Origin: a bacterium
GTDB lineage: Bacteria; Patescibacteriota; Minisyncoccia; UBA6257; JAUSGH01
Direction of reading: 5' to 3'
DNA length: 64,000 bases
Assembly: GCA_030649055.1 (NCBI GenBank)
Contig: JAUSGH010000001.1
Coordinates: 10,907-74,906 of the forward strand
Below, one piece after another: positions 114-50,943 of this stretch. Numbering within the stretch: position 1 is the first letter of the stretch; every line of letters starts with the position of its first letter. The translations under genes were made by a program, and so were the position numbers. The notes below the pieces were generated by a model, which was not told where the DNA came from, made no database searches, and saw only the letters and a program-made list of their open reading frames with translations.

Positions 114-2597
114 CTATTTCCCATGACACTTCTTATATTTAATAGGATGTTCGCTCGCATCCTTCGCTCCGCACGGGCACGGGTCATTTCTCCCGATTTT
201 CTGACCAGGGTTGAGCGTATAGGGTTTAGCGTTTGGGATAACTGCAGGGCTCTGAATCTTTTTTTCTACTATACCCTCAACGCTAGACGCTAAACGCTCT
301 CTATTCGCACTCACCCACTCCTCAAACGTGGCGAGCAGCTGTTTGAACATAATGTGCCCCTCCCGTTTGTATTCAACAAGTGGGTCGTGCTGACCGTAGG
401 CACGGAGACGCACGGCGTCGCCCAATGCTTCCATGTCGGAGAGATGGTTCATCCAAATCATGTCCAGCATTGCCAACACGGTTGGCAATGCGGAATCAGG
501 AATTTTGAATAATGAATCAGGAGCCGCGGGCGTTTCGCTGTCGTGATTTATAATTCCTAATTCATGCTTCTCCAGCATCTCCTGCCTCTTCCTATATATA
601 GTAAGCCGCTGGCGGTTTAGGACGTCGTCGTACTCCAGCAAGTGTTTGCGGGAATCAAAGTGAAATCCTTCAACGCGGGATTGCGCCTCGCCGATGGCTC
701 GGGAGATAAGCCCTGCGCTGATGGGCATATCATCGGGAACGCTGAGGCGTTCCATAAGGCGCTTCAAGCGGTCGCCGGCAAAAATGCGCATCAGGTCATC
801 TTCCAGTGAAAGGAAAAATTGTGAGGAGCCCGGGTCCCCTTGCCGGCCGGCGCGTCCACGGAGCTGGTTATCAATGCGGCGCGCTTCGTGCCGTTCGGTG
901 CCGATGACGTGCAACCCCCCCGCGTCGCGCGCTTTCTGCGCTTCTAAAATCTCCGGCGGGTTTCCGCCCAGAATAATGTCCACACCACGGCCGGCCATGT
1001 TTGTTGCAACCGTAACTGCTCCGAGCCGTCCCGCTTGCGCGATGATGGCGCCCTCACGCTCGTTATTTTTGGCGTTCAGCATTTCGTGGCTAATGCCGGC
1101 GCGCTTCAGGCGGCGTGAGAGCTCCTCGTTCTTTTCAATGGAGACTGTGCCGATCAATACCGGCTGGCCTTTTTCGTGGCGCGCTTTGATGTCGGCGATA
1201 ATCGCATCGTGTTTCGCTTCAACGGTTTTGTAAATAAGGTCCGCCTCGTCATTGCGTATCATTTCGCGATTGGTCGGAATGGTGACCACTTCCAGTTTAT
1301 ACACCTTATCAAATTCTTCGGCGGATGTTTGTGCGGTACCGGTCATGCCGCCGAGTTTGTTGTACAAACGGAAATAGTTTTGAATGGAAATCTGCGCATA
1401 GGTGCGTGATTCCTGGTTCACGCGTACGCCTTCCTTCGCCTCTATTGCCTGGTGCAATCCGCCGGAAAAACGCCGTCCTTGCATGAGCCGTCCGGTGAAC
1501 TGGTCAACGATGATAATTTCTCCGTCTTTTGAAACATAGTCACGGTCGCGAAGGTAAAGGCCGTACGCTTTTAAGCTTTCTTGCAAGTAGTGCGTGAGGC
1601 GGAGGTTTTCGGGCGCGTAGATATTTTTGATATTCATCACCTGCTCCACCTTGTCGATGCCGGCATCGGTGATGTCGGCGGAGTGCATTTTCTCGTCAAC
1701 AAGGTAGTCCACGCCTTTTTCGAGGCGTGCGACAACGCGCGCGAATGTTTTGTAAAGCTCGCTTGATTCGCTGTCGGGCGCGGAAATAATAAGCGGAGTG
1801 CGCGCCTCGTCAATTAAAATGCTGTCCACTTCGTCGATAATGGCGTAGTGCCAGCCGCGCTGCACCTGCCGCAAAAGGTTGTTTTCCAGATTATCGCGGA
1901 GATAGTCAAAACCGAATTCGTGGTTGGTGCCGTAGGTAATGTCGGCGGCATATGCTTCACGCCGTGAAATCGGCCGGAGATATGCCTCTTGCACCAAGTA
2001 CGCGCCGGTTACGTCGCGTTCTTTATCTAACAAGGCCGACTCCGCGTGTTCGTGTTTCTGATCATTTGAATTTGTTTCGGATTTCGGATTTCGGATTTCG
2101 GATTTTGCGTGCAAATATGTGGGGTCGTATATCACGGCGCCTTCGTGAATAAGACACGCGACACTCATTCCGAGCGCACGATAAATCTGTCCCATCCAAA
2201 CGGCGTCGCGTTTTGCGAGGTATTCGTTGACGGTAACGACATGCACGCCCTCCCCTTTTAGCGCGTGCAGATACGCGGGTGCGGTTGCGGCCAAAGTTTT
2301 TCCTTCACCGGTGCGCATCTCAACAATTTTTCCCTGGGCAAGCGCGATGCCGCCCATGAGCTGCGCGTCATAATGGCGCTGTTTCAATGCGCGCTTTGCG
2401 GTTTCGCGCACAAGCGCGAACGCGCGGGGTAGAAGTGCCTCTATGGGTTCTCCTTTCCGGGCGCGTTCTCGAAGTTTTTTGCTTTCATTCAACAGAAACT
2501 CATCACCGAGCGGAGCGATCTCCGCTTCCAGCGCGTTGATTTCCGCAACGGTTTTTTTGAGTTTTTTTATTGGGCTAAACAAACCAAAAAAGTTCAT
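114..2597 (-). CDS. secA: Preprotein translocase ATPase SecA
   Basis: 827 aa translation has the SecA DEAD-motor motifs (MGGIALAQGKIVEMRTGEGKT, TVNEYLAKRD) and a C-terminal CPCG zinc-binding tail. Confidence 0.95.
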   Translation of the reverse strand: MNFFGLFSPIKKLKKTVAEINALEAEIAPLGDEFLLNESKKLRERARKGEPIEALLPRAFALVRETAKRALKQRHYDAQLMGGIALAQGKIVEMRTGEGKTLAATAPAYLHALKGEGVHVVTVNEYLAKRDAVWMGQIYRALGMSVACLIHEGAVIYDPTYLHAKSEIRNPKSETNSNDQKHEHAESALLDKERDVTGAYLVQEAYLRPISRREAYAADITYGTNHEFGFDYLRDNLENNLLRQVQRGWHYAIIDEVDSILIDEARTPLIISAPDSESSELYKTFARVVARLEKGVDYLVDEKMHSADITDAGIDKVEQVMNIKNIYAPENLRLTHYLQESLKAYGLYLRDRDYVSKDGEIIIVDQFTGRLMQGRRFSGGLHQAIEAKEGVRVNQESRTYAQISIQNYFRLYNKLGGMTGTAQTSAEEFDKVYKLEVVTIPTNREMIRNDEADLIYKTVEAKHDAIIADIKARHEKGQPVLIGTVSIEKNEELSRRLKRAGISHEMLNAKNNEREGAIIAQAGRLGAVTVATNMAGRGVDIILGGNPPEILEAQKARDAGGLHVIGTERHEARRIDNQLRGRAGRQGDPGSSQFFLSLEDDLMRIFAGDRLKRLMERLSVPDDMPISAGLISRAIGEAQSRVEGFHFDSRKHLLEYDDVLNRQRLTIYRKRQEMLEKHELGIINHDSETPAAPDSLFKIPDSALPTVLAMLDMIWMNHLSDMEALGDAVRLRAYGQHDPLVEYKREGHIMFKQLLATFEEWVSANRERLASSVEGIVEKKIQSPAVIPNAKPYTLNPGQKIGRNDPCPCGAKDASEHPIKYKKCHGK

Positions 2598-2695
2598 AGC
2601 ACGAGCTTAACACTAAAAAGGCGATTTTGCTATTGACGGTGAGGTTTTGTTGGTATAATATGTTCCTTAGTATTGGCTATGTTCGGGAGGACATC

Positions 2696-3274
2696 ATGGC
2701 AGAGGAAACACCTATGACGCCGGAAGGCGCGGTGACACAACCGGAGGAGATGGCCATGACGCGGCCGAAGCTGGACGAGCCGCCGCGGCTCGTGAAGGTC
2801 AACGGTGAAGACCGCTCGCGCCCGGGGTGTGGACTCTACGGAGAGTGGGGCGAATACGGCCTGAAGCATGCCATTGTCTATTTTCTGGACAACTTGCTCG
2901 CCGGCAACTTCGACGAGCTCCCCGCTCCGCACATCGTCTTCGGCCCTATCACGTTGAAGCTGCGTCGGCACGTGGGATGTGATGGCGAGTACATCGCCTA
3001 CGGTGAGCCGATGAACGACGAACGGCCGGATTGGTTCGTGGGTAGGACGCGGAAGCTGAGATTTGAGGTTGAGCTTCTGTCTTCTTCTGGCGTCGACGTG
3101 CTGGAATACAACCTCCGGAAGTTCGCGCTGAATAAGAGCTGGCGGGTGCTCGCGGTGTTCTTCGGTCCTGCCCGCACGCTGCGGATCTGGAAGAAGGAAG
3201 ACGGAGGGTATGGTCTGGAGACCTACGGCCTTCCGAAGACCGAGGAAGAATGGAACTGGCATCCGCACAGTTAG
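2696..3274 (+). CDS. Hypothetical protein (GC-rich orphan)
   Basis: ATG at 2696 sits 4 nt after a GGAGG RBS. The opposite-strand ORF 2630..3295 is Arg-rich and looks like a shadow ORF. A convergent terminator hairpin follows. Confidence 0.55.
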   Translation: MAEETPMTPEGAVTQPEEMAMTRPKLDEPPRLVKVNGEDRSRPGCGLYGEWGEYGLKHAIVYFLDNLLAGNFDELPAPHIVFGPITLKLRRHVGCDGEYIAYGEPMNDERPDWFVGRTRKLRFEVELLSSSGVDVLEYNLRKFALNKSWRVLAVFFGPARTLRIWKKEDGGYGLETYGLPKTEEEWNWHPHS

Positions 3275-3305
3275 CGCCCCTGTCAGACGGGGCAAGAAAC
3301 TGAAA

Positions 3306-3336
3306 CGGGAGTGGTCGCCTCAGGCGACCACTCCCG
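3306..3336. terminator. Bidirectional intrinsic terminator hairpin
   Basis: Perfect 14-bp inverted repeat cgggagtggtcgcc-tca-ggcgaccactcccg between convergent genes. Confidence 0.7.
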
Positions 3337-3366
3337 TTACTCATTTTCGCGTAATCCCCTACGGGA

Positions 3367-3675
3367 TTATTTCTGTTTAGAAAGTATATTTTTCAACTTA
3401 TCCTTTACTTCGGTGACCGCGACACGGATGTCCCAATCTTCATGCTCGGCGCGCGCGATGTTTTTACTCGTCGCGTCCAGATTCACCTCCGCGCGATACA
3501 CCGGGCCCTTCGTGTGATGTTTTGTGGTGCGCGCGATTTCAACAATCGCAATCACGCTCGTGCCGTTGCGCTCGTGCCGTTGCACGAACTTATCAAGCGA
3601 CCCGATTTTTTCGTTGATGTACTCGATCATCGCGGGCGTGAGGTCAAGGTTGGTTGCTTTGATGTTTATTTTCAT
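3367..3675 (-). CDS. hpf: Ribosome hibernation promoting factor (RaiA/YfiA family)
   Basis: MKINIKATNLDLTPAMIEYINEKIGSLDKF...VEIARTTKHHTKGPVYRAEVNLD is typical of HPF. I placed the start at the internal ATG giving about 103 aa. Confidence 0.85.
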   Translation of the reverse strand: MKINIKATNLDLTPAMIEYINEKIGSLDKFVQRHERNGTSVIAIVEIARTTKHHTKGPVYRAEVNLDATSKNIARAEHEDWDIRVAVTEVKDKLKNILSKQK

Positions 3676-3736
3676 GGAGTGGTGGGTGCTTTTATTCGCG
3701 TTATTTTTATCGTCCAATTCGCGATATTCGCGAACA

Positions 3737-4717
3737 CTATACGTAAATGACTTCTTCCTCAAGAACTATACCAAATTTTTTCTTTACTTGCGACTTTACA
3801 AGTTTAATCAGCGACTTCACATCGCTTGCCGAAGCGTCCAGCACGTTCACGATAAAGTTCGGATGTTTGGGTGAAATCATCGCGCCGCCATAGCTTACGC
3901 CTTTGACGCCGCTGGCTGCAATGAGATACGCGGCAGGTACTACAGGAAACGGATCATTCTTTACTGGAATCGCCGACCCACGCAGACTAAACGCTGACTT
4001 ACGCAGAGCTTCCGCGTAGTTCCGCGTGCGTTCCGCGTAAATCTGCGTCACTGGGACATTTTTGAATATACTGCCGATGTTCGGATAATCCATCGGATGC
4101 CGCTCTTCGCGGTAGCGGATTTTTTCGGCAACTGTCCTTGCGATGACAGCCGGGTCCCCCGTCTTCATTTGCAGCGTTGCTTCCAAAATTATTTCTTCGC
4201 CGTCGTTAATTTTGAAGATGCTGTTGCGGTAGCCAAAGGCACATTCATTTGCCATGCGGTTCATGAGGCGCGGTTCTTTTTTTGCAATGTTCAAACTCGC
4301 GACTTCAAACACCGCATCTTTTGTTTCCCCGCCAAATGCGCCGGCGTTTCCTCGGATGGCGCCGCCAACGGTGCCGGGAAGCCCGCCCGCCCACTCCAAC
4401 CCGGCGAGTCCGTGGATGGCAGCGAAGTCTACAAGTTCGCGCATGAGGACACCCGCGCCGACACGGATTTTTGTTTCATCGGCGGAGATGTGCCCAACGG
4501 CGGGCTTGATGACCAAGCCATCGAATCCTCCGTCATTGATGAGCAGGTTTGTTCCCCCACCGAGGATAAAAATGTCGCGTTTTTTTCTCTTGATTTTTCT
4601 CCATTCTTTGAGCGCGGCAATAATTTCATCGGCCGATGCCGGTTCACAAAAGTACCGCGCGATGCCGCCGATTTTGTAATTACTATAGAGGCTTAATTTT
4701 ACGTCGTGACGGAACAT
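3737..4717 (-). CDS. murB: UDP-N-acetylenolpyruvoylglucosamine reductase MurB
   Basis: FAD-binding GGGTNLL motif, GLAGLEWAGGLPGTVGGAIRGNAGAFGGE and SYGGAMISPKHPNFIVN motifs. Confidence 0.9.
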   Translation of the reverse strand: MFRHDVKLSLYSNYKIGGIARYFCEPASADEIIAALKEWRKIKRKKRDIFILGGGTNLLINDGGFDGLVIKPAVGHISADETKIRVGAGVLMRELVDFAAIHGLAGLEWAGGLPGTVGGAIRGNAGAFGGETKDAVFEVASLNIAKKEPRLMNRMANECAFGYRNSIFKINDGEEIILEATLQMKTGDPAVIARTVAEKIRYREERHPMDYPNIGSIFKNVPVTQIYAERTRNYAEALRKSAFSLRGSAIPVKNDPFPVVPAAYLIAASGVKGVSYGGAMISPKHPNFIVNVLDASASDVKSLIKLVKSQVKKKFGIVLEEEVIYV

Positions 4718-4931
4718 GATTGAAATAAAAAAGAAAAAGAAGCACTGGCTTCCTTCGTGCGACAGTTACAATGTACGCGCGTTGATTCTATGCCCTGAGC
4801 GACTGCCAGTGGTGACCTCCAATTCTATTTGTGTTGAACGAGTGCGCAGCCGGCAATCGCTCGGGAGACGGAATCAAGAACGCAATGCGTTCATTTATAT
4901 TATAATGCACGAACACCGTGCGAAGCAAACT

Positions 4932-4958
4932 AAAAACCTGTCTTGCGACAGGTTTTTA
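4932..4958. terminator. Bidirectional terminator hairpin
   Basis: aaaaacctgtc-ttgc-gacaggttttt, with an A-run before and a T-run after. Confidence 0.7.
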
Positions 4959-5058: not shown

Positions 5059-5448
5059 CTAGAAAATATTCTCGTAATAATTTATTAGAAAATTATTTCC
5101 CAACTCTGTCAAGTACTCCGGAAAAAGCTGAACAGCGGCGACGTCCGCCCTCCATCCCCTCTCCCCTACTTGCTCCGGGTACTTTAATGCGTAGAATTCC
5201 GCGATCTTTTTGAACTTCTTTACCTTCGCCGAGGTCATATTGTCCTCCGGCTTTAACGCGGCTCCCCCGCCAGTAAGCAAGGTCTTTACCTCTATAAATA
5301 GAAGCAACCCATCTTTCGCCTTTGCAACGATGTCGATTTCACCGAATTTTTGCCGGTAGTTTCTTGCGATGATTTTGCAGCCACTTTTTACGAGGTGCTC
5401 TACGGCAAGCTCCTCGCCGAGATCACCGATGGTTTTGGTTGATGTCAT
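5059..5448 (-). CDS. yraN: YraN/UPF0102 family endonuclease
   Basis: GDLGEELAVEHLVKSGCKIIARNYRQKFGEIDIVA...LLFIEVKT matches UPF0102. Start trimmed to the internal ATG (MTSTKTIG). Confidence 0.75.
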   Translation of the reverse strand: MTSTKTIGDLGEELAVEHLVKSGCKIIARNYRQKFGEIDIVAKAKDGLLLFIEVKTLLTGGGAALKPEDNMTSAKVKKFKKIAEFYALKYPEQVGERGWRADVAAVQLFPEYLTELGNNFLINYYENIF

Positions 5449-5504
5449 ATGCGTTACAGTGTTTGACGGCAAACACTCGTACAATCCTTCGACAAGCTCA
5501 GGAT

Positions 5505-6015
5505 AAATAAAACAATAAAGCAATGAATCAAAAAAGCAACACAATGTTTACCGTCAAACAATGTTTACCGTCAAACATTGTTTCAGGCGAGGATGTTTGC
5601 CGGCAAACATTTGAAATGTATCAAAAGCCACTAAAAATACGGCAAGAGTACTGTTAATACGGCAAAACATGCTACTTTGCCGTATTTGTTTTATATTTTC
5701 GGTGAAATTGTTTCACGTCAAACACGCAGACAAGAAAACAATAAAGCAATAAATCAAAGAAGCGACAGATGTTTGCCGTCAAACAATTGTTTGACGGTAA
5801 ACAATTGTCTTGGGTGGAGGACATCGAAAAAACGTGATAAAGTGTTTGCCGTCAAACAATTGTTTTGGTAAAAATGACAAAAGTGTAGGTTTAATCAACC
5901 GATTGGATTATGGAGAAATTGCCTAGAAAGTAGGCTATAAAATGTTTAACAGATTGTTTAACGCCATGTAAATAAGTCAATCGGATAGGTTTAATCAACC
6001 GATTGGATTAAAAAA
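5505..6015. repeat. Cluster of iteron-like or operator-like direct and palindromic repeats in a 650-bp non-coding gap
   Basis: tgtttaccgtcaaaca is repeated in tandem three times at 5548-5598. Two roughly 70-bp imperfect direct repeats lie at 5507-5578 and 5737-5808. A perfect 22-bp palindrome ccgtcaaacaattgtttgacgg lies at 5777-5798. aggtttaatcaaccgattggatta occurs at both 5887 and 5988. Confidence 0.6.
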
Positions 6016-6112
6016 CACCCGTGAAACAAATTATACTGTAAAACAATATTGTGCGACAGATATGTAAAGTGTAACGGCCAGCTCGAGGTTGTCGGGCTGG
6101 CCGTCGTGTAGA

Positions 6113-6661
6113 TCACTTCTTGCTGTTCGCGATGCGGTGCTGCTCGAGCCGTTCGGCGGCAGCAAGGATGGAAAGCCAATACTGCATGAGTTCCGCGGTA
6201 TCGTCGCTGCCGCCGGGCCGGCAGTCCAGGATGCGCTTTAACGCGGCGATGAGCTCTCGGCGTGTTTCGCCGTCAAACTCTTCGACGGCGATCGTTTTGA
6301 CGCGTAGCGCTCCGGCAATCATATCTGCGACAACGCTCGCATCCTTTTCGTCTACACCGCCATAGGCACAGATGGATGATTCCAGCATCGTGCCGATGCG
6401 CAGATTGTGGACACACGCAATCGCGTCAAGGTCTCCCTGCAGCTGCGCGCCTTTGAGGAGGACATCCGGCGGCGACATGATATTTCCGACGTACGCATGA
6501 AGTTCCTCGTGTGTCATGTGCTGGAGCGAATTCTGCCGTTTGTACAGCCACCAGTGAGCGCGTTGGCACCAGTAGTAGATACCGCTCATCGCGAGCACGA
6601 GCAGTGCGAGCCCGACGACCGTCTGTCCGAACGGTGTGAGGAGCCGATACAAGGTATCCAT
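6113..6661 (-). CDS. Hypothetical membrane-anchored protein (N-terminal TM helix)
   Basis: 182 aa ORF with a hydrophobic N-terminal helix (VVGLALLVLAMSGIYYW). Last gene of a GC-rich three-gene minus-strand cassette. Confidence 0.5.
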   Translation of the reverse strand: MDTLYRLLTPFGQTVVGLALLVLAMSGIYYWCQRAHWWLYKRQNSLQHMTHEELHAYVGNIMSPPDVLLKGAQLQGDLDAIACVHNLRIGTMLESSICAYGGVDEKDASVVADMIAGALRVKTIAVEEFDGETRRELIAALKRILDCRPGGSDDTAELMQYWLSILAAAERLEQHRIANSKK

Positions 6662-6714
6662 GTGACCTCCGTAATGGAATGGCGGTGAATAACTGATTAC
6701 AGTATAACGCTATT

Positions 6715-6760
6715 ATTTAAAAAAAGAAAATCGCCGGCTCCCGGGAAGGGGAGTCGGCGA
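6715..6760 (-). terminator. Intrinsic terminator for the minus-strand cassette gene
   Basis: Hairpin cgccggctccc / ggggagtcggcg followed on the minus strand by a T-run (plus-strand ttaaaaaaagaaaat). Confidence 0.55.
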
Positions 6761-6779
6761 TCGGTGCGTTCGTGGGGTG

Positions 6780-7064
6780 CTAGCGTCCGCTGGGCGACCA
6801 CTTCGTCAGCGGCTCCAGCTTGTAGATGACGATGGCGCCATCCGCGGGATGGAAGCAGGGGAGGAACCCTTTCTCCACAAGCCACGCGGCGCGCTCCTGG
6901 AACTTGCACTGGGCAAGGAGCGCCCTGCTGCACTGACCGGGAGGGAGGTTGAACCGCTCGTGCTCCACGAGCGTCAGCCCGTCCTTCAGACGCTCCCGTA
7001 CTCCGCGCCAGGTGAAGATGCTCTGGCCGATCTTGGTCGGGTTAGGAACGGCGTTTCTGGGCAT
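6780..7064 (-). CDS. Hypothetical protein (94 aa)
   Basis: ATG at 7064 is preceded by a GGAGA RBS. Trimmed from the longer ORF 6780..7325. GC-rich. Confidence 0.45.
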   Translation of the reverse strand: MPRNAVPNPTKIGQSIFTWRGVRERLKDGLTLVEHERFNLPPGQCSRALLAQCKFQERAAWLVEKGFLPCFHPADGAIVIYKLEPLTKWSPSGR

Positions 7065-7129
7065 CCCATTTCTCCTTCTGACAAACCGAATGGCGGAGGA
7101 CTCCGGACAGTTCTGTTTACTCCTTTCTG

Positions 7130-7531
7130 TTAGGCGACCGCAGTAACATCCGGCGCCACGAGGTTCACGATGCTCTCGGCATCCTTGAGGAAGCCGTAGA
7201 CATTCTCCAGTGCGAATGGGATGTCGAAGCGCACTTCGTTGAAGCTCCAGTCGGCGCTGAGGTTTTCGTTCAGGTCGTGGAAGACCCTCAGGAGCAGCTG
7301 CCATGCCTCCCGAGTTGCGTCCCACGCCAGCTTCTCACTGAGCGTAGTGGGATTTACCCCAACGACGTCAAGGTAGAGTACGCACCGGTGTGCATCACCG
7401 CGGTGACGTTCCACGGTGAACGTGCGCCGCAGGATGCCCTTCGTTGCGTGGTGCTGCGGCCCATTGTCGGTCACCACATCCCTGTTGAGCTGTACGCAAA
7501 TCGCGACAGCTCCGGTAATCCGTTGCATCAT
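7130..7531 (-). CDS. Hypothetical protein (133 aa)
   Basis: ATG preceded by an AGGGGA RBS. First gene of the GC-rich cassette, divergent from the dksA-like gene. Confidence 0.45.
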   Translation of the reverse strand: MMQRITGAVAICVQLNRDVVTDNGPQHHATKGILRRTFTVERHRGDAHRCVLYLDVVGVNPTTLSEKLAWDATREAWQLLLRVFHDLNENLSADWSFNEVRFDIPFALENVYGFLKDAESIVNLVAPDVTAVA

Positions 7532-7632
7532 CGCGATTCCCCTGAAATGAGAACCTGCTGTTTATAGTCAGCTTACACAAGCCAACCGATTACTAGGAAG
7601 TAGTATAGCAATTCATTAGCATTTTGTCAATA

Positions 7633-7661
7633 TTGACTTCGCTTGGCGTGGACAATAATAT
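7633..7661 (+). promoter_or_regulatory. Sigma70-like promoter for the dksA-like gene (leaderless-type spacing)
   Basis: TTGACT at 7633-7638, 17-nt spacer, TAATAT at 7656-7661. The ATG at 7671 is about 10 nt downstream and has no RBS. Confidence 0.5.
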
Positions 7662-7670
7662 AAACGATAT

Positions 7671-8015
7671 ATGGCATTCACTAAAGAACAATTTGCAATT
7701 TTACGGTTGAAGTTGGAGGAGACGCTTGCCGATATTAAAGACGAGCTGAAAGGCGTTGATGGGAAAGTGACGGATATGGGCAGTGACAACGATCATCTTG
7801 AAGAAGAAGAGGATGAGGCCGAGGAGTTTTCCGTAAACGTTGCGATTGCGGGTGGATTAAAGGATCGTCGCGAGAATGTTGAAGTCGCGCTCCAGAAAAT
7901 GGCTGAAGGGAAATATGGGAAATGCGAGAAGTGTGGCATGGACATCGGCATGGACGTGCTCATGGCCGACCCTGAATCGCGACTTTGCAAGCATTGTAAG
8001 GAGGGCGCGAAATAG
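7671..8015 (+). CDS. DksA/TraR family C4-type zinc-finger protein
   Basis: C-terminal CEKCGMDI...CKHC zinc finger, acidic coiled-coil N-terminal region, 114 aa. Confidence 0.75.
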   Translation: MAFTKEQFAILRLKLEETLADIKDELKGVDGKVTDMGSDNDHLEEEEDEAEEFSVNVAIAGGLKDRRENVEVALQKMAEGKYGKCEKCGMDIGMDVLMADPESRLCKHCKEGAK

Positions 8016-15012: not shown

Positions 15013-15064
15013 GGTTCGACTGTGCTCACCAAATAAATATTTCCTGAGCTTGTCGAAGGAATAC
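15013..15064 (+). repeat. Hairpin-plus-RBS intergenic repeat, copy A
   Basis: ttcgac-tgtgctca-ccaaataaatatttcc-tgagc-ttgtcgaa-ggaatac. Shares the core ataaatatttcctgag...tcgaaggaatac with copies at 16169-16220 (reverse) and 18833-18884. Confidence 0.6.
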
Positions 15065-16168: not shown

Positions 16169-16220
16169 GTAGTCCTTCGACTTTGCTCAGGAACTATATA
16201 GTTGGTGAGCTTGTCGAACC
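16169..16220 (-). repeat. Hairpin-plus-RBS intergenic repeat, copy B (rpsA leader)
   Basis: The reverse complement reads ggttcgacaagctcaccaactatatagttcctgagcaaagtcgaaggactac and ends 9 nt before the rpsA ATG. The GAAGGA segment serves as the RBS. Confidence 0.6.
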
Positions 16221-16410
16221 ACTACAACCGTGAGGATGAAATTTACTTATAATGTCGCTTTTCGGCGCATCCCCGGCAGCCGATCCGCAATTACTCCAAA
16301 TGATAGCGGAGTCCGCTCAAAAATGCAAGCGCGTACTCTGTCATTGCGAAGGGCCGATAGCCATCGGCCCTGTGGCAATCTTACATTATAAAAACCCTAA
16401 AAATGGATTA

Positions 16411-29635: not shown

Positions 29636-29722
29636 TGTCATTCCGGACCTGATCCGGAATCCAGCTCGCTAGGCTCTGGATTCCCGCTGGAGTTTATCCG
29701 CCTTTGGCGGGCGGGAATGACA
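29636..29722. mobile_element. MITE-like palindromic intergenic repeat, copy 1 (TGTCATTCC...GGAATGACA)
   Basis: 87 bp. Its reverse complement is about 90% identical to the copy at 37481-37566. Compound palindrome with internal hairpins. Lies directly after the ftsH stop. Confidence 0.6.
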
Positions 29723-29810
29723 CATAATCGATGGCTCGCTTGTTTTCCGCAACGCATTGCGTTACTTTTGATATGGTTCTTCTCGGGTGGTTTTTGTACG
29801 GAGGTAACCC

Positions 29811-30551: not shown

Positions 30552-30629
30552 TGGACCCGGTTTGCTTAGGCATCCGGGTCCGCTCTATTTGAAAATATGT
30601 CGGCGAAGCAGTATGATATGAATGCAAAT

Positions 30630-30771
30630 GCGCCCGTAGCTCAATGGTTAGAGCACCGAGCTTCCAATCGGCAGCGAGGATGGAGTAAAGTTGTGGCAAT
30701 GCGCCTGTAGCTCAATGGTTAGAGCACCGAGCTTCCAATCGGCAGCGAGGATGGAGTAAAGTTGTGGCGTT
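30630..30771 (+). pseudogene. Two tandem 71-bp units, each a tRNA 5' half plus a 37-nt spacer
   Basis: Unit 1 at 30630-30700 has acceptor gcgcccg, and unit 2 at 30701-30771 has acceptor gcgcctg. Both read ..gtagctcaatggttagagcaccgagctt + ccaatcggcagcgaggatggagtaaagttgtggc and lack an anticodon loop 3' side, T-arm and 3' acceptor. Confidence 0.7.
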
Positions 30772-30844
30772 GGGCGTGTAGCTCAATGGTTAGAGCACCG
30801 AGCTTATACCTCGGTGGTTCCTGGTTCGAGTCCAGGCACGCCCA
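30772..30844 (+). tRNA. tRNA-Ile (anticodon TAT)
   Basis: Acceptor gggcgtg/cacgccc, D-arm gctc-aatggtta-gagc, anticodon stem ccgag/ctcgg with loop cttatac, T-arm cctgg-ttcgagt-ccagg. No CCA encoded. Confidence 0.7.
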
Positions 30845-30890
30845 CAAATTTATTACATCCGAGCGAACCGATTGCATGCTAAAGGCATGG

Positions 30891-30927
30891 ACCTCGGTGG
30901 TTCCTGGTTCGAGTCCAGGCAGGCGCA
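30891..30927 (+). pseudogene. Orphan tRNA 3' half (anticodon-stem 3' strand, T-arm, acceptor caggcgc)
   Basis: acctcggtggttcctggttcgagtccaggcaggcgca. Its acceptor strand is complementary to the gcgcctg of 5'-half unit 2, implying a tRNA split by about 150 bp that contains the intact tRNA-Ile. A third 3'-end copy (tccaggcacgcccacaaatttta) lies at 31361-31385. Confidence 0.65.
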
Positions 30928-31639
30928 CAAATTTTATAATCAGCTTAATTGTTGATTATAAAATTTTGCGCCCGGACTCGAATGGGAAAGGGGTCGGGAA
31001 AACGGGAGTTTTCCCGTGGAGGAAGTGGACCCTATCGCAATTCTTGCTCTCGGCGCGTTGCGCTCCGCGCGCGTGAGCACAAGAAGCGACGACGAGGTTG
31101 TATGCTCTTGCATACGCCGAGGAGGAGCGACGCCGTGATTCGCGCGCGTGGTGCGCAACCCTTCGGGAAGCCGCATCTTGCCGCACATCGCAACGTTGCT
31201 CGTCGATTCATGTATCCCAGGGGATACACTTCACTCCTCGCGCCTTGCGCTGCGCCTAGCAATCTGCGGCTTCGCGCCAGAGATAAGAATTGCGATAGGG
31301 TCCGAACCGCTGGGTTTCAAAGCGCAAGCCCCGCAATGCGGGGCTGAGCAGTGAGATGTCCAGGCACGCCCACAAATTTTAAAACCAGAAGGAGGCGCGC
31401 TGTGGAAAACCCTCTTGCGCCTATGTGTCGCGATTTGTTATATATAAATGGTATGAAAAATGGTCGGCAACAGTTTACGTATGTCATGATTACGACGTCG
31501 CTTACGCGGAGGTCGCTTTCTCTTCATTCGTAACGCAGCCGATTCATACGAACGAAACAAGAAAGAGGCCTTCGCGAAACCGGAGGCCTTTTTCGTTTCG
31601 GGGCAGATTTTGTGGTTCTTTGACAATTCGGAGGTCGTC

Positions 31640-37471: not shown

Positions 37472-37480
37472 AACGTTAAG

Positions 37481-37566
37481 TGTCATTCCCGCCCGCCGAA
37501 GGCGGATAAACTCCAGCGGGAATCCAGAGTTGGCGTGCTGGATTCCGGATCAAGTCCGGAATGACA
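37481..37566. mobile_element. MITE-like palindromic intergenic repeat, copy 3
   Basis: tgtcattcccgcccgccgaaggcggataaactccagcgggaatccagagttggcgtgctggattccggatcaagtccggaatgaca. Lies directly after the rsmE stop. Confidence 0.6.
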
Positions 37567-46657: not shown

Positions 46658-47552
46658 AATGATTACACTGAAATGTTGACCTTAAAGCATAACCCCTGCG
46701 GCTCCTAGTCCTCCATAAAGAGGACAATTTCCAGAGCCGCGCACAGCGGCTTTTGTCGTTGTAAGGGGACCGGTGCTGACTGAAACGAACGGACATTGAT
46801 AAACAGGATCTGACAGAAAATTCTTTTTTGTCGGGTGCTCATAAGTAAATCAATGCAAATGAAAACGCAATTTCAAGAGTATTATCGAAAGCATTCAATG
46901 CTTCGATGATCGGTTTTACTGCTCAATATCTGCATGATGGCGGAGTATTGAGTACGCCTCGTTAAGTCGCCTCAGGCGACCGCGAGGTTGCACGCGTTGA
47001 ATTCAGAGCGTGTATAAGGGCGTATGGTGGATGCCTAGACACAAAATGGCGATGAAGGACGCAGCATAACTGCGATAAGCTTCGGGGAGGTGTGTAGCAA
47101 CCTTTGATCCGGAGATTTCCGAATGGGGAAACCCTGCGCGGTAAACCCGCGTAACGCATGCGATTAAACGCGCATGTGAGCAGACCCGCTGAAGTGAAAC
47201 ATCTCAGTAAGCGGAGGAATAAAAATAGATTAGATTCCCCAAGTAGCGGCGAGCGAAAAGGGAACAGCCTAAACTTTAGTGTGTGCAGCAATGTATACGC
47301 TGGAGGGTTGCAAGGGTAAGACATTTTTGCGTATCGCAAAGCTCTCGTTAAACAGGGCTGTGCGATTCGCGGAAGATTGGTTACAAATTGCTTCGTTAGC
47401 TGAAGCTTCTGGAAAGAAGCGCCAAAGTGAGTGATAGCCTCGTAAGCGAAAACAAAGCAACCAATTCGTTTTATTTCTTAAGTACCTCGAGACCACAACA
47501 TCTCGAGGGAATCCGCCAGTACTATCTGGTAAGGCTAAATACATTTTGTGAT

Positions 47553-47589
<37 letters not shown>

Positions 47590-49458
47590 CAGCCCGGCGA
47601 GGGCGCTGAAATAGTACCTGAAACCATATGTCTACAAGGACTAGAAGTCCAACCACTGAGCAATCAGTGGCGGACAACTAGGTGCCTATTGAAGAATGAG
47701 CCAACGACTTTACGTTTACTGCTTGTCTAAGTCGCTTCATGCGACGGAGGCATAGGGAAACCGAGTGTTAATAGCGCGTTCTCTTATTTATGACCGAGTA
47801 GCTGGTATGCTTCCAGCGTTCGGTCATAGATGAGAAGGCAGTAAGTGTAAGACCCGAAGCCAAGGCGAGCTTGCCCTGACCAGGATGAACCCGAGCGAAA
47901 GCGAGGGGGAGGTCCGAACCAGTTGATTGTGCAAAATCTTTGGATGAGTTGGGGTAAGAAGTGAAAAGCTAATCGAGCTTGGTAATAGCTGGTTCTCTCC
48001 GAAATAGTTTTAGGACTAGCGTTCCGCAAAAACCGTATGGGGGTAGAGCACTGGTTGATTCGTATTGGGGGAAACCTCGGCGCATCAGTCAAACTCCGAA
48101 TACCATACGGGACGCGGGATAGTCAGACTGTGGGGGCAAAGCTCCATGGTCGCGAGGGGAATAGCCCAGACCGTCGTCTAAGGTCCCTAAATTCTTGCTA
48201 AGTGTAAAAGGTAGTCATGCCCCAGAGACAGATAGGAGGTTGGCTTAGAGGTAGCCATCCTTTAAAGAGTGTGTAACAACTCACTATTCGATGGGTCGTG
48301 GCGCCAAAAATGTACCGGGGCTAAGCAAGATACCGACGACACGGGTGTCCATGACTTCGGTCGTGGACGCGGTAGGAGAGCATTCTGATTGCTGTGAAGG
48401 TTCATCCGTGAGGAGGACTGGAGCGTTCAGGAGTGAGAATGTTGGCATGAGTAACCATCAAATCCGATGAGAAATCGGATCCCCGAAAATCCAAGGTTTC
48501 CGTGGCAATGGCAATCAACCACGGGTTAGGCGATCCTAAGGCAATGGCGAAAACCGTAGCCGATGGGTAGCCGGTTAATATTCCGGCCCGCGCTTATTTG
48601 TGCGATGGGGTGACGGAGGAAAAAAGGTTGAGCGTCTCAATGGTTTGACGTCGCTGATGATAAGGAATGTGTTCTTGGCAAATCCGGAGCACTGTGTTTA
48701 ATCGCGAATTCCGCGCGTCGGCGTAAGGCCAAGTTTTACTTGGCTAATTCAACTGAAGAGCCTTCCAAGAAAAACCTCTAAGTTTAGGATAAGCGCATCG
48801 TACCGTAAACCGACACAGGTGGGTGAGGCGAGACGCCTCAGGGGAACGAGTGAGTCTTGGTCAAGGAACTAGGCAAAAAAGCGGCCGTACCTTCGGTATA
48901 AGGCCTGCCCGTCACGCCGCAAGGTGTGCATGGGCTGCAACAAAAGTACATTTGGCGACTGTTTATCAAAAACACAGCTTCCTGCTAACTCGTAAGAGGA
49001 TGTATAGGAGGTGACACTTGACCGATGCGAGAAGGTTAACGGTGGGTGTGTATTCGAAAGCAATTTTGGATATGCTCACTGCCCGAAGCCCTCGTCAATG
49101 TCAGCGGTAACTATAACCGTTCTAAGGTAGCGCAATTCCTTTCCGGGTAAGTTCCGGAGCGCATGAATAGTGTAACGATCGAATGACTGTCTCGACCAAG
49201 AGCTCGGTGAAATTGCGATTCCCGTGAAGACGCGGGATACCTGTAACGGGACGAAAAGACCCCGGGAGCTTTACTGTAGTTTGATATTGGCTTTAACGTT
49301 TTTCTGCGTAGCGTAGTGGCGAGGGTATGAAACCTGGTTTTCGGATCAGGTGGACCCGACAATGAAACAGCCATCTGGAAAATGTTAAAATCTAACCTTT
49401 ACGGCAAAAACGTATTGGGACAGTGTCTGATGGGCAGTTTTAATGGGGCGTTATCCTC

Positions 49459-49793
49459 AACAAAACGATTGACATCCGTTCAATCGAGGGGGTTAACGTA
49501 ATAAAAAATTCAGCTATATGCTGGGACATCCGTGCATCTTCAAGTACTCGGGCGCTTCGCGCTCAGTGAAAATCTTGAAGTGGCATCCGCCAGGTGGCGG
49601 ATCGACGGACAATCAGCAGGCAACCTCCGACGGACATCGGAGAGAGTCCTCAACGACTATACGCTGAACATCGTGATGTCACTCGCGATGAAGATATAGT
49701 CTGACCTCTGTGGCGACACAGAGAGTTGTGGTAGAAATGCCGCGCCGATCACCGGCAACTAAATTTTAGAGTTGCTGGCGATGTGTAACAAAT
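49459..49793 (+). other. ORF-less insertion of about 335 nt in 23S next to the P-loop region (candidate group I intron)
   Basis: Flanking sequence reads ...ggcgttatcctc | insertion | ctaaaaagtaacggaggag. The flanks together restore the conserved GGTCTCCTCCTAAAGAGTAACGGAGGAG. Boundaries +/- 2 nt. Confidence 0.55.
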
Positions 49794-50127
49794 GCCTAAA
49801 AAGTAACGGAGGAGTTTATTAAGGTTGGCTTAGCGCGAATGGAAACCGCGCTGGACGTGTAAACGCAAAAGCCAGCTTGACGGCAAGACCTACAAGTCGC
49901 GCCGGTGCGAAAGCAGAAGTTAGTGACCCGATGATCCGTCATAGAATGGTCAGAGACATCGGCTAAAAGTTACCCCGGGGATAACAGGCTAGTCTGGTCC
50001 GAGAGTTCCTATCGACGACCAGGCTCGGCACCTCGATGTCGGCTCGCCCTAGCGCGGAGGTGGAGAAGCTTCCAAGCGTATGGCTGTTCGCCATTTAAAA
50101 GGGCACGTGAGCTGGGTTCAAACCGTC

Positions 50128-50401
50128 AACGAAAAAGAACCTAGAGAAGACATCAACAAACGGCGGCGCTTTGCCGTAAGGCAAAGCTGAGAAGTTGACT
50201 CATATCGGTGAAGTCCTACAAAATCTTTAACCTGGGTTTTGAGGATAACCCCGAGGGAAGGTCCGATGAACGTCGGACCCCCGTAGAGACTTGATCGTAA
50301 GGGATCGGAATCCGGTTTTATAATCGGGTTAATACGTCAACCCTCCGATGAATATCGGAGTGATGGTATAGTCCAAACAATTAGTAATAATTGAGTATTG
50401 C
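50128..50401 (+). other. ORF-less insertion of about 274 nt in 23S at the I-CreI-type homing site (candidate group I intron)
   Basis: Flanks aaccgtc | insertion | gtgagacaggttagtc restore the conserved AACGTCGTGAGACAGTTCGG. Boundaries +/- 2 nt. Confidence 0.55.
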
Positions 50402-50826
50402 GTGAGACAGGTTAGTCTCTACCTGTTACAGGCGTGTGATGCTTGAGGGCAGTCGACCCTAGTACGAGAGGACCGGGTTGAACGAACCTCTGGTCTACCA
50501 GCTTTAGTACCAACTGAATCGCTGGGTAGCTAAGTTCGGAAGGGATAAGCGCTGAAAGCATATAAGCGCGAAGCCTAGCCCAAGATAAGGCATCTTTCCG
50601 CAAGGAAGCAGTCCGTAGAAGATTACTACGTTGATAGGTCGCAGGTGTAAGATCAGTAATGATTTCAGCCGAGCGATACTAATAGACTGTCACACGCTCT
50701 GAATTGAGCGCATGAAAGTAGCGTTCTCTGTAGAAATATAGAGGGCGCCAGTAAAACCGATCATCAAAGCATTGAACCCCCGCCTTTCGGCGGGGGGAAA
50801 GGGTTAGAAAAAACAACCTTTTTGTT

Positions 50827-50943
50827 TGCTGGTGTTTTGTTTCGATGTGTCCCACCTCTTCCCATTCCGAACAGAGTCGTGAAAGCATCGTGAGCCGATG
50901 ATACTAGCTGCTTCGGCGGCCGGGAAAGTAGGATATGCCAGCA
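50827..50943 (+). rRNA. rrf: 5S ribosomal RNA
   Basis: tgctggtg...cccacctcttcccattccgaacagag...ccgatgatact...gggaaagtaggatatgccagca. Confidence 0.85.

Follow-up and report, generated by a model that had tools for sequence, protein, structure and literature searches.

Three adjacent genes on the minus strand (here named g1, g2 and g3, at 6113-7531) of a 64-kb window of bacterial chromosome, referred to as W, are a fixed feature of one narrow clade and not an island, and their comparison with the loci of relatives (L001, L005 and so on) shows that the alleles of each gene, and separately those of the C-terminal domain of g3, fall into deeply diverged classes, and that homologous recombination at conserved linkers has brought these classes together in different combinations in different lineages. 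We tentatively favour the reading that this is a vertically fixed hypervariable locus, its allele classes reshuffled by recombination, which may function in conflict or recognition inside the cell. The window comes from a chromosome of the candidate phyla radiation (CPR)/Patescibacteria type, as seen from a 23S rRNA gene with a group I intron and from its housekeeping genes; those neighbouring the locus or lying elsewhere in W include secA, hpf, murB, yraN, a dksA-like gene, comM and the gene for polynucleotide phosphorylase (PNPase). Judged by comM, the closest GTDB species representative is a Candidatus Paceibacterota metagenome-assembled genome at 63% identity. NCBI annotates all three products as hypothetical proteins (g1, Q7R85_00105; g2, Q7R85_00100; g3, Q7R85_00095). 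The three co-oriented minus-strand open reading frames (ORFs) listed in a preliminary description of this DNA are all present, and the locus and its signals are laid out in W as follows.

7602-7630, minus strand: P1, the sigma-70-type promoter of g1-g2 (TTGACA-17-TATACT with an upstream TG).
7130-7531, minus strand: g1, 133 residues, a predicted acidic cytoplasmic alpha+beta protein and the most conserved gene of the locus.
6780-7064, minus strand: g2, 94 residues, strongly basic, with two deeply diverged allele classes.
6719-6762, minus strand: T1, the intrinsic terminator of the g1-g2 unit, a 13-pair hairpin with one internal mismatch followed by UUUUCUUUUUUU.
6662-6710, minus strand: P2 and the 5' untranslated region of g3, with TATACT at 6701-6706, a CAGTT box and a GGAGG ribosome-binding site (from an eight-locus alignment).
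6113-6661, minus strand: g3, 182 residues, a predicted bitopic membrane protein.
6074-6104, minus strand: T2, a hairpin directly 3' of g3 (ACGGCCAGC...GCTGGCCGT), terminator-like with a weak T tract.

The comparison draws on long contigs with housekeeping flanks from two further species-level lineages (L001-L004 together with L094, and L005), and short contigs contribute eight additional lineages to the comparison of g1-g3. Between W and L001, the proteins of six housekeeping flanking genes are 81-96% identical, with ratios of nonsynonymous to synonymous substitution rates (dN/dS) of 0.02-0.12, whereas identity is 65% for g1, 26-27% for g2 and 36-39% for g3. The same holds for DNA, which is 81-93% identical in the flanks as against 44-49% in g2 and 37-45% in the part of g3 that encodes the C-terminal domain, where the sequences are essentially unalignable; the 5' end of g3, which encodes the transmembrane (TM) segment, and the proximal spacer show 65-84% identity. 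The degree of relatedness between two loci also depends on the gene that is compared. L007 and L011 share 86% identity in g2, 51% in g3 and 38% in g1, and L097 and L011 share 95% in g2 and 38% in g1; W and L009 are 63% identical in g3 and 46% in g1, and L005 and L013 49% in g3 and 31% in g1. In the single genome pair L007-L011, dS is 0.26 for g2 versus 1.37-1.46 for g1 and g3, and a sliding-window profile reveals sharp breakpoints between g1 and g2 and just past the TM-coding part of g3. Discordant gene histories and sharp breakpoints are the mark of diverged allele classes exchanged by homologous recombination, and not of uniform drift or recent horizontal import. The conserved linkers at which exchange takes place are the promoter, the segment formed by the terminator, P2 and the TM-coding 5' end of g3, and an array of palindromes that follows g3.

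Within an allele class, dN/dS is 0.22-0.26, and between classes dN reaches 0.59-0.89, near the dS of the flanks (0.69-0.87 for four of the six flanking genes); g2 spans both figures, with a dN/dS of 0.26 within its class and a dN of 0.89 between classes. For g1, dN/dS is ~0.3, and values within an allele class or for the better-conserved genes range from 0.17 to 0.39. Such rates point to purifying selection within allele classes and to a divergence between classes that reaches the neutral level of the flanks.

The position of the locus is constant. In the long contigs the order is comM, the dksA-like gene, the divergently oriented g1-(g2)-g3, a spacer of ~650 bp, yraN, murB, hpf, an orphan gene and secA, and synteny is identical in L001-L005. 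Linkage of the three genes is borne out by the relatives, in which they are not scattered: g1 is always first, and g3 comes after it in 10/10 lineages with contigs long enough to tell. The middle gene, g2, is present in 7 of 12 lineages and is absent without a remnant from L005, L009, L013, L095 and L096. In L096 (680-1638), two tandem g3-type genes follow g1 and there is no g2; the first encodes a divergent protein of 190 residues with a TM segment and a helical part, the second is a typical g3, and the arrangement shows turnover of gene content at the locus. No integrase or tRNA gene adjoins the locus in W or in the long contigs. The relatives without the locus are the nearest GTDB relatives only, with comM 60-63% identical; two 15-kb stretches around comM (L014 and L015) keep the dksA-comM pair, lack the locus and have unrelated genes upstream.

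Base composition likewise gives an old locus. The GC-richness reported previously is real relative to the two flanking genes, as g1, g2 and g3 have GC contents of 0.59, 0.65 and 0.59 and yraN and the dksA-like gene 0.47 and 0.49, but across the 27 genes of W (0.538 +/- 0.040) only g2 is a clear outlier, beyond two standard deviations; comM (0.570), x215 (0.582) and a gene of 441 codons (0.591) match g1 and g3. In relatives, the GC content of g1 is 0.585-0.592, independent of local GC. Relatives show the same excess, which is therefore long-standing at this locus and no sign of recent import. The gene x215 (2627-3274, plus strand) is itself an orphan of 215 residues at a conserved position between secA and hpf, without a Pfam match; its GC content is 0.58, with 0.74 at third codon positions, its identity between W and L001 is 54-63% where its neighbours have 81-91%, and its dN/dS is 0.30.

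The regulatory signals are conserved together with the genes. In a consensus promoter scan P1 scores 11 of 12 positions; its -35 hexamer TTGACA is invariant in 8/8 aligned loci, in which the -10 hexamer is kept with single-base variants (TATACT, TAGACT, TGTACT and TATGCT). P1 lies back to back with the divergent dksA-like promoter, and the -35 hexamers of the two form a palindrome, GTCAATATTGAC (7620-7645), in an arrangement that is kept in relatives and that suggests a compact bidirectional control region. A gap of 65 nt separates g1 from g2. A longer g2 ORF, starting from a GTG at 7325, would overlap g1, and in relatives g2 starts at the same MPR/MSR, preceded by an AGGAG ribosome-binding site. 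A good ribosome-binding site had been described for each gene; this applies to g2 (AAGGAGA) and g3 (GGAGG), but the site of g1 is weaker in W (GGGGA), being GGAGG in relatives.

Directly 3' of g2 stands T1, whose hairpin (-22.7 kcal/mol, z = -4.4) was equalled in stability by 0/200 shuffles and is kept in relatives, including those without g2. The hairpin and T-run had been taken for the end of a single cassette; they are real and conserved, but they lie between g2 and g3. From T1 to g3, all relatives have in common a -10-like hexamer (TATACT, TACACT or TATAAT), a CAGTTTTCC box and a GGAGG ribosome-binding site, and in L001 and L011 the sequence TCGACA is found 17 nt upstream of the hexamer. 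The consensus promoter scan did not call P2 in W because its -35 element is weak. At T2, compensatory double changes occur in 6 of 11 pairs among seven lineages. Because T1 sits between g2 and g3, and g3 has its own -10-like element and hairpin, these signals indicate two transcription units, P1-g1-g2-T1 followed by P2-g3-T2, in place of the single cassette with its own terminator that had been proposed. The conservation of ORFs, ribosome-binding sites, promoter and terminators in 11-12 lineages further indicates that all three ORFs are real genes.

The predicted products differ in character. The g1 protein has an isoelectric point (pI) of ~5.7 and no hydrophobic segment, and its AlphaFold2 (AF2) model (predicted local distance difference test score, pLDDT, 79.8; predicted template modelling score 0.72) consists of a three-stranded long beta-meander followed by a helix, a strand, a helix and a strand, for which fold searches returned no significant match. 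The g2 protein has a pI of 9.7-11 and a C-terminal tail rich in Arg/Lys; neither g1 nor g2 has a signal peptide. The N-terminal TM segment that had been noted for g3 holds up, with a Kyte-Doolittle maximum of 1.92 at residues 7-25 and an AF2 helix at 10-45, and this anchor is conserved, with the motif SGIYYW. Beyond it lies an acidic, helical and hypervariable C-terminal domain; the AF2 model of g3 is all-helical and of low confidence (pLDDT 55, unreliable). Because positive charges follow the TM helix, the positive-inside rule predicts an N-out/C-in protein with a cytoplasmic C-terminal domain, and the likely site of action of g1, g2 and g3 alike is the cytoplasmic side of the membrane.

On the evidence of sequence searches, g1, g2 and g3 represent new orphan protein families restricted to one narrow Paceibacterota clade within the CPR. 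The three proteins of W have no significant match in Pfam, NCBIfam, PHROGs or PADLOC, and the remaining members of the g2 and g3 families have no Pfam match. In a scan of PADLOC-DB v2 (5027 models, E<=0.1), 23 family members representing all three genes were without a match beyond two chance-level singles (E = 0.015 and 0.06, one member each). Sequence-profile searches of the PDB with the three families gave nothing below E = 0.3 (for g1 and g2, nothing below E = 0.5), and no DNA-binding domain was detected in the Pfam and PDB profile searches. The earlier view of three proteins without a recognisable motif agrees with the library scans, which gave neither a conserved catalytic motif nor a known domain and placed none of g1, g2 and g3 in a housekeeping family. 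Two faint candidates were rejected. A PepSY_TM match (E ~2e-3, below the cut-off) reflects the TM motif SGxxxW only, and a Spo0J match for g3 at E = 1 is noise.

The families are also very small. A sequence search found eight homologues of g1, and when the g1 profile was run exhaustively as a hidden Markov model against 1.84 billion representative proteins, only 6 representatives came up; the same profile had no relative among GTDB species representatives, no match in viral contigs and one match in JGI metagenomes, from the same species as L001. With tblastn, g2 and g3 had no match in phage or plasmid records. W holds no paralogues of the locus genes and no repeats of >=40 nt involving 6113-7531, so there is no template/variable pair of a diversity-generating retroelement, although no search was made for a reverse transcriptase. 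A permissive Rfam search of 5300-7700 gave only chance matches to miRNAs and small RNAs, inside palindromes.

The behaviour of the locus belongs to a known class of fixed hypervariable loci. As in CdiA-CT/CdiI, Rhs-CT and comQXP of Bacillus, conserved flanks and a conserved N-terminal part (here the TM anchor of g3) are followed by a breakpoint and then by a highly diverged C-terminal module, lineages differ in their combination of allele classes, and small genes next to it vary in presence. The likeness is one of evolutionary pattern only, as g3 has only ~180 residues, its variable domain is predicted to be cytoplasmic, its alleles align as one helical family, and the locus has no secretion, toxin or immunity domains. 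Bounded allele swapping in ~1.5 kb between flanks that are 81-96% identical in protein is the pattern usual for conflict or recognition genes, and a conflict function of some kind would be compatible with the hypervariable, shuffled modules. We propose that a partner inside the cell most likely exerts the selection that would maintain the diversity. Proteins of phages or mobile elements, or a partner in self-recognition, are examples, and the partner is placed inside the cell because that is where the three proteins seem to work. The g2 protein and the C-terminal domain of g3 would then be the rapidly changing specificity parts, g1 would be the more constant core, and g3 would provide the link to the membrane.

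Several points weigh against this proposal. Gene-wide dN/dS never exceeds 1, g1 of L008 has a deletion of 24 residues, and this deletion, the fast evolution and the occasional loss of g2 also fit weak constraint. The presence of g1 and g3 in every lineage seen is unlike typical patchy defence genes, and the nearby orphan x215, which has no obvious conflict role, is similar in GC content and dN/dS. Furthermore, the topology of g3 is derived from charge distribution only, and most contigs of relatives are 1-2 kb long and without housekeeping flanks, so that species divergence can be calibrated for W, L001 and L005 only.

Some of these points would be expected if the three genes were young lineage-specific orphans under weak constraint, with a minor or condition-specific role, and if the mosaic had arisen by ordinary recombination without selection for diversity. 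This explanation, which we consider possible but rather unlikely, would accommodate dN/dS values of 0.2-0.5 (always below 1), the loss of g2 in 5 of 12 lineages, the internally deleted g1 of L008, the like behaviour of x215 and the lack of a conserved catalytic motif or known domain. However, g1 and g3 are intact ORFs in all lineages, with promoter, ribosome-binding sites and covarying terminators, despite near-saturated synonymous sites, and streamlined CPR genomes shed useless DNA. Moreover, the dN of 0.89 between g2 classes is about as high as the dS of the flanks, yet dN/dS within a class is 0.26; the two together speak for maintained allele classes and not for uniform relaxed drift.

More specific versions of a conflict function fare less well. 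We regard it as clearly unlikely that the locus is an undescribed, CPR-specific intracellular immunity or recognition system in which g2 and the C-terminal domain of g3 are swapped as allele cassettes on a g1 core, fixed beside the palindrome array and not mobile. Small anti-phage systems with a TM effector, of the kind collected in PADLOC and DefenseFinder, resemble the locus in having two or three small genes including one for a TM protein, in fast evolution and in variable content; they differ in that the present locus has no PADLOC match, does not lie in a defence island, is not patchy in its clade and has no match in phage or plasmid records.

The preliminary description had compared the genes with a toxin/antitoxin or defence cassette. 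In its full form this would be a horizontally acquired island, in which g1 and g2 are a cognate antitoxin/toxin (or sensor) pair and g3 is a membrane-disrupting effector, and we find it very unlikely. The pair does look like a type II toxin-antitoxin operon, being small and co-transcribed from a strong promoter, with acidic (pI ~5.7) and basic (pI ~10) products and a tight terminator of its own; a TM protein comes next, the locus is hypervariable with presence/absence variation, and its GC content is above that of its immediate neighbours. Against this, the scans of PADLOC, Pfam, NCBIfam and PHROGs described above yielded no family, with no defence-system match among the 23 family members checked in PADLOC, and g1 and g2 have neither homology to a toxin or antitoxin family nor a DNA-binding antitoxin domain. 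Their alleles do not co-vary or co-diversify (86-95% identity in g2 versus 38% in g1), and g1 persists without g2 in five lineages; the independent variation and the dispensability of g2 argue against a cognate pair. The g3 gene is transcriptionally separate. The locus is core-genomic and not mobile, lying in strict synteny among housekeeping genes and adjoined by neither a mobility gene nor a tRNA gene, and its identical GC excess in relatives marks it as ancient; the absence of the g1 profile from viral contigs and of g2 and g3 from phage and plasmid records also disagrees with an island. The earlier observation is therefore partly confirmed, with its layout misread, and the defence or toxin-antitoxin reading is not supported by direct test.

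Beyond g3, the spacer that separates it from yraN (5446-6112, 667 bp, AT-rich) contains a further feature.

5460-5858, no strand assigned: an array of eight 16-bp palindromes, TGTTTNNCGNNAAACA, parS-like, a neighbouring feature in the AT-rich spacer before yraN.

The eight copies lie within 400 bp and none is found elsewhere in the 64 kb, where 0.23 would be expected by chance. An array of 7-9 copies follows directly after g3 in every relative reaching that far, and in 0/83 other fetched loci. The chromosomal parS consensus is TGTTNCACGTGAAACA (PMC7022226). The copies match it at 13-15 of 16 positions and share with it the outer TGTT(T)...AAACA arms and the central CG, whereas the inner positions are degenerate, deviating in most copies; a density of eight copies in 400 bp is more like plasmid centromeres such as sopC, and no ParA or ParB homologue is encoded in W. 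The palindromes probably form the centromere array of the chromosome, at a density that is uncommon for chromosomal sites.

Parts of the spacer do not vary among five lineages and exceed the three proteins in conservation. Among these blocks, a motif of ~25 nt, TAGGTTTAATCAACCGATTGGATTA on the plus strand (CCAATCGGTTGATTAAACCTA on the minus strand), occurs at 5886-5910 and 5986-6010, with both copies invariant in five lineages, and the first copy (5886-5910) can pair with a downstream CCGATTG; its AAACCTA core is reminiscent of the Thermotoga DnaA box. Inside the array lies a hairpin, AATACGGCAAA...TTTGCCGTATT (~5633-5686), with a second TTGCCGTATTTTT behind it; this element shows no variation in five lineages, was partly flagged as terminator-like and could be the 3' end of a small RNA or an attenuator-like alternative pairing. 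A short intergenic motif, GAGCTTGTCGAAGG, is found at ~5485-5500 and again at 15050-15064 and 16210-16225, with a variant, GAGCTTGTCGAAC, in the spacer of L011, and may be a dispersed small repeat. As to a replication origin at the spacer, the GC-skew shift at the array (from ~0 to +0.076) is too weak to call one, and the skew data, with 5.4 kb only on one side, are too short to decide.

The adjacency of genes and array raises the question of a joint centromere or origin module, in which g3, by way of its cytoplasmic helical domain, would tether the parS-like array (or a ParB complex) to the membrane and g2 and g1 would act as adaptors that bind DNA or a partner. We hold such a module to be highly doubtful. 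In its favour, the locus and the array adjoin each other in every relative reaching that far and neither occurs in the 83 other loci, L014 and L015 among them; the g2 protein is basic and ends in an Arg/Lys tail, g3 is predicted to be N-out/C-in, the spacer is better conserved than the genes, and the skew shifts here. ZipA and EzrA are N-out/C-in membrane tethers, and g3, with a single N-terminal anchor and a predicted cytoplasmic helical domain beside a parS-like array, is reminiscent of these proteins and of RacA-DivIVA and Noc; however, it has no sequence similarity or confident structural similarity to any of them, and its sequence turnover is extreme. The adjacency may be mere inherited synteny, the array persists without g2 (for example in L005), and the palindromes resemble canonical parS bound by ordinary ParB. 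Segregation machinery would not be expected to show such extreme divergence among alleles, the Pfam and PDB searches revealed no DNA-binding domain, and the skew data are too short on one side to decide.

Other features of the window and its surroundings deserve mention. In L001, the side of comM facing away from the locus carries (1971-4950) a type IIG restriction-modification-like gene (N6_Mtase/Eco57I) and a LexA-like gene; W is without those two genes at that position, which reveals a variable region on the other side of comM. The 23S rRNA gene at 47004-50943 is split by its group I intron (49461-49723) and followed by 5S. The 47 kb upstream of it contain no 16S rRNA gene, so the operon is of the unlinked kind that is often reported for CPR bacteria. 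A gene for tRNA-Ile with the rare anticodon TAT lies at 30772-30845 (region 30627-30934), preceded by two tandem 71-nt copies (99% identical) that resemble a tRNA 5' half, and a 95% copy of its 3' end is found at 30891-30934; these surroundings look like scars of an att-site type or of duplication. Finally, the two arms of a 54-nt inverted repeat (29674-29727 and 37476-37529, 96% complementary) bracket 7.7 kb with the tRNA cluster and an ORF of 1095 codons, and the bracketed segment may be invertible or mobile.

CPR/Patescibacteria genomes are small and have many unannotated genes, among which those that merit experimental effort are seldom easy to pick out. If a fixed hypervariable locus with a conflict or recognition function proves to be the wrong reading, g1, g2 and g3 would be an ordinary set of lineage-specific orphan genes. 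The dense parS-like array next to them would in itself be a landmark for the centromere, and perhaps for the origin region, of these genomes. If the favoured reading is true, the defence or recognition repertoire of an uncultivated phylum would grow by three new protein families, and the locus would provide a compact marker of strain-level population structure.

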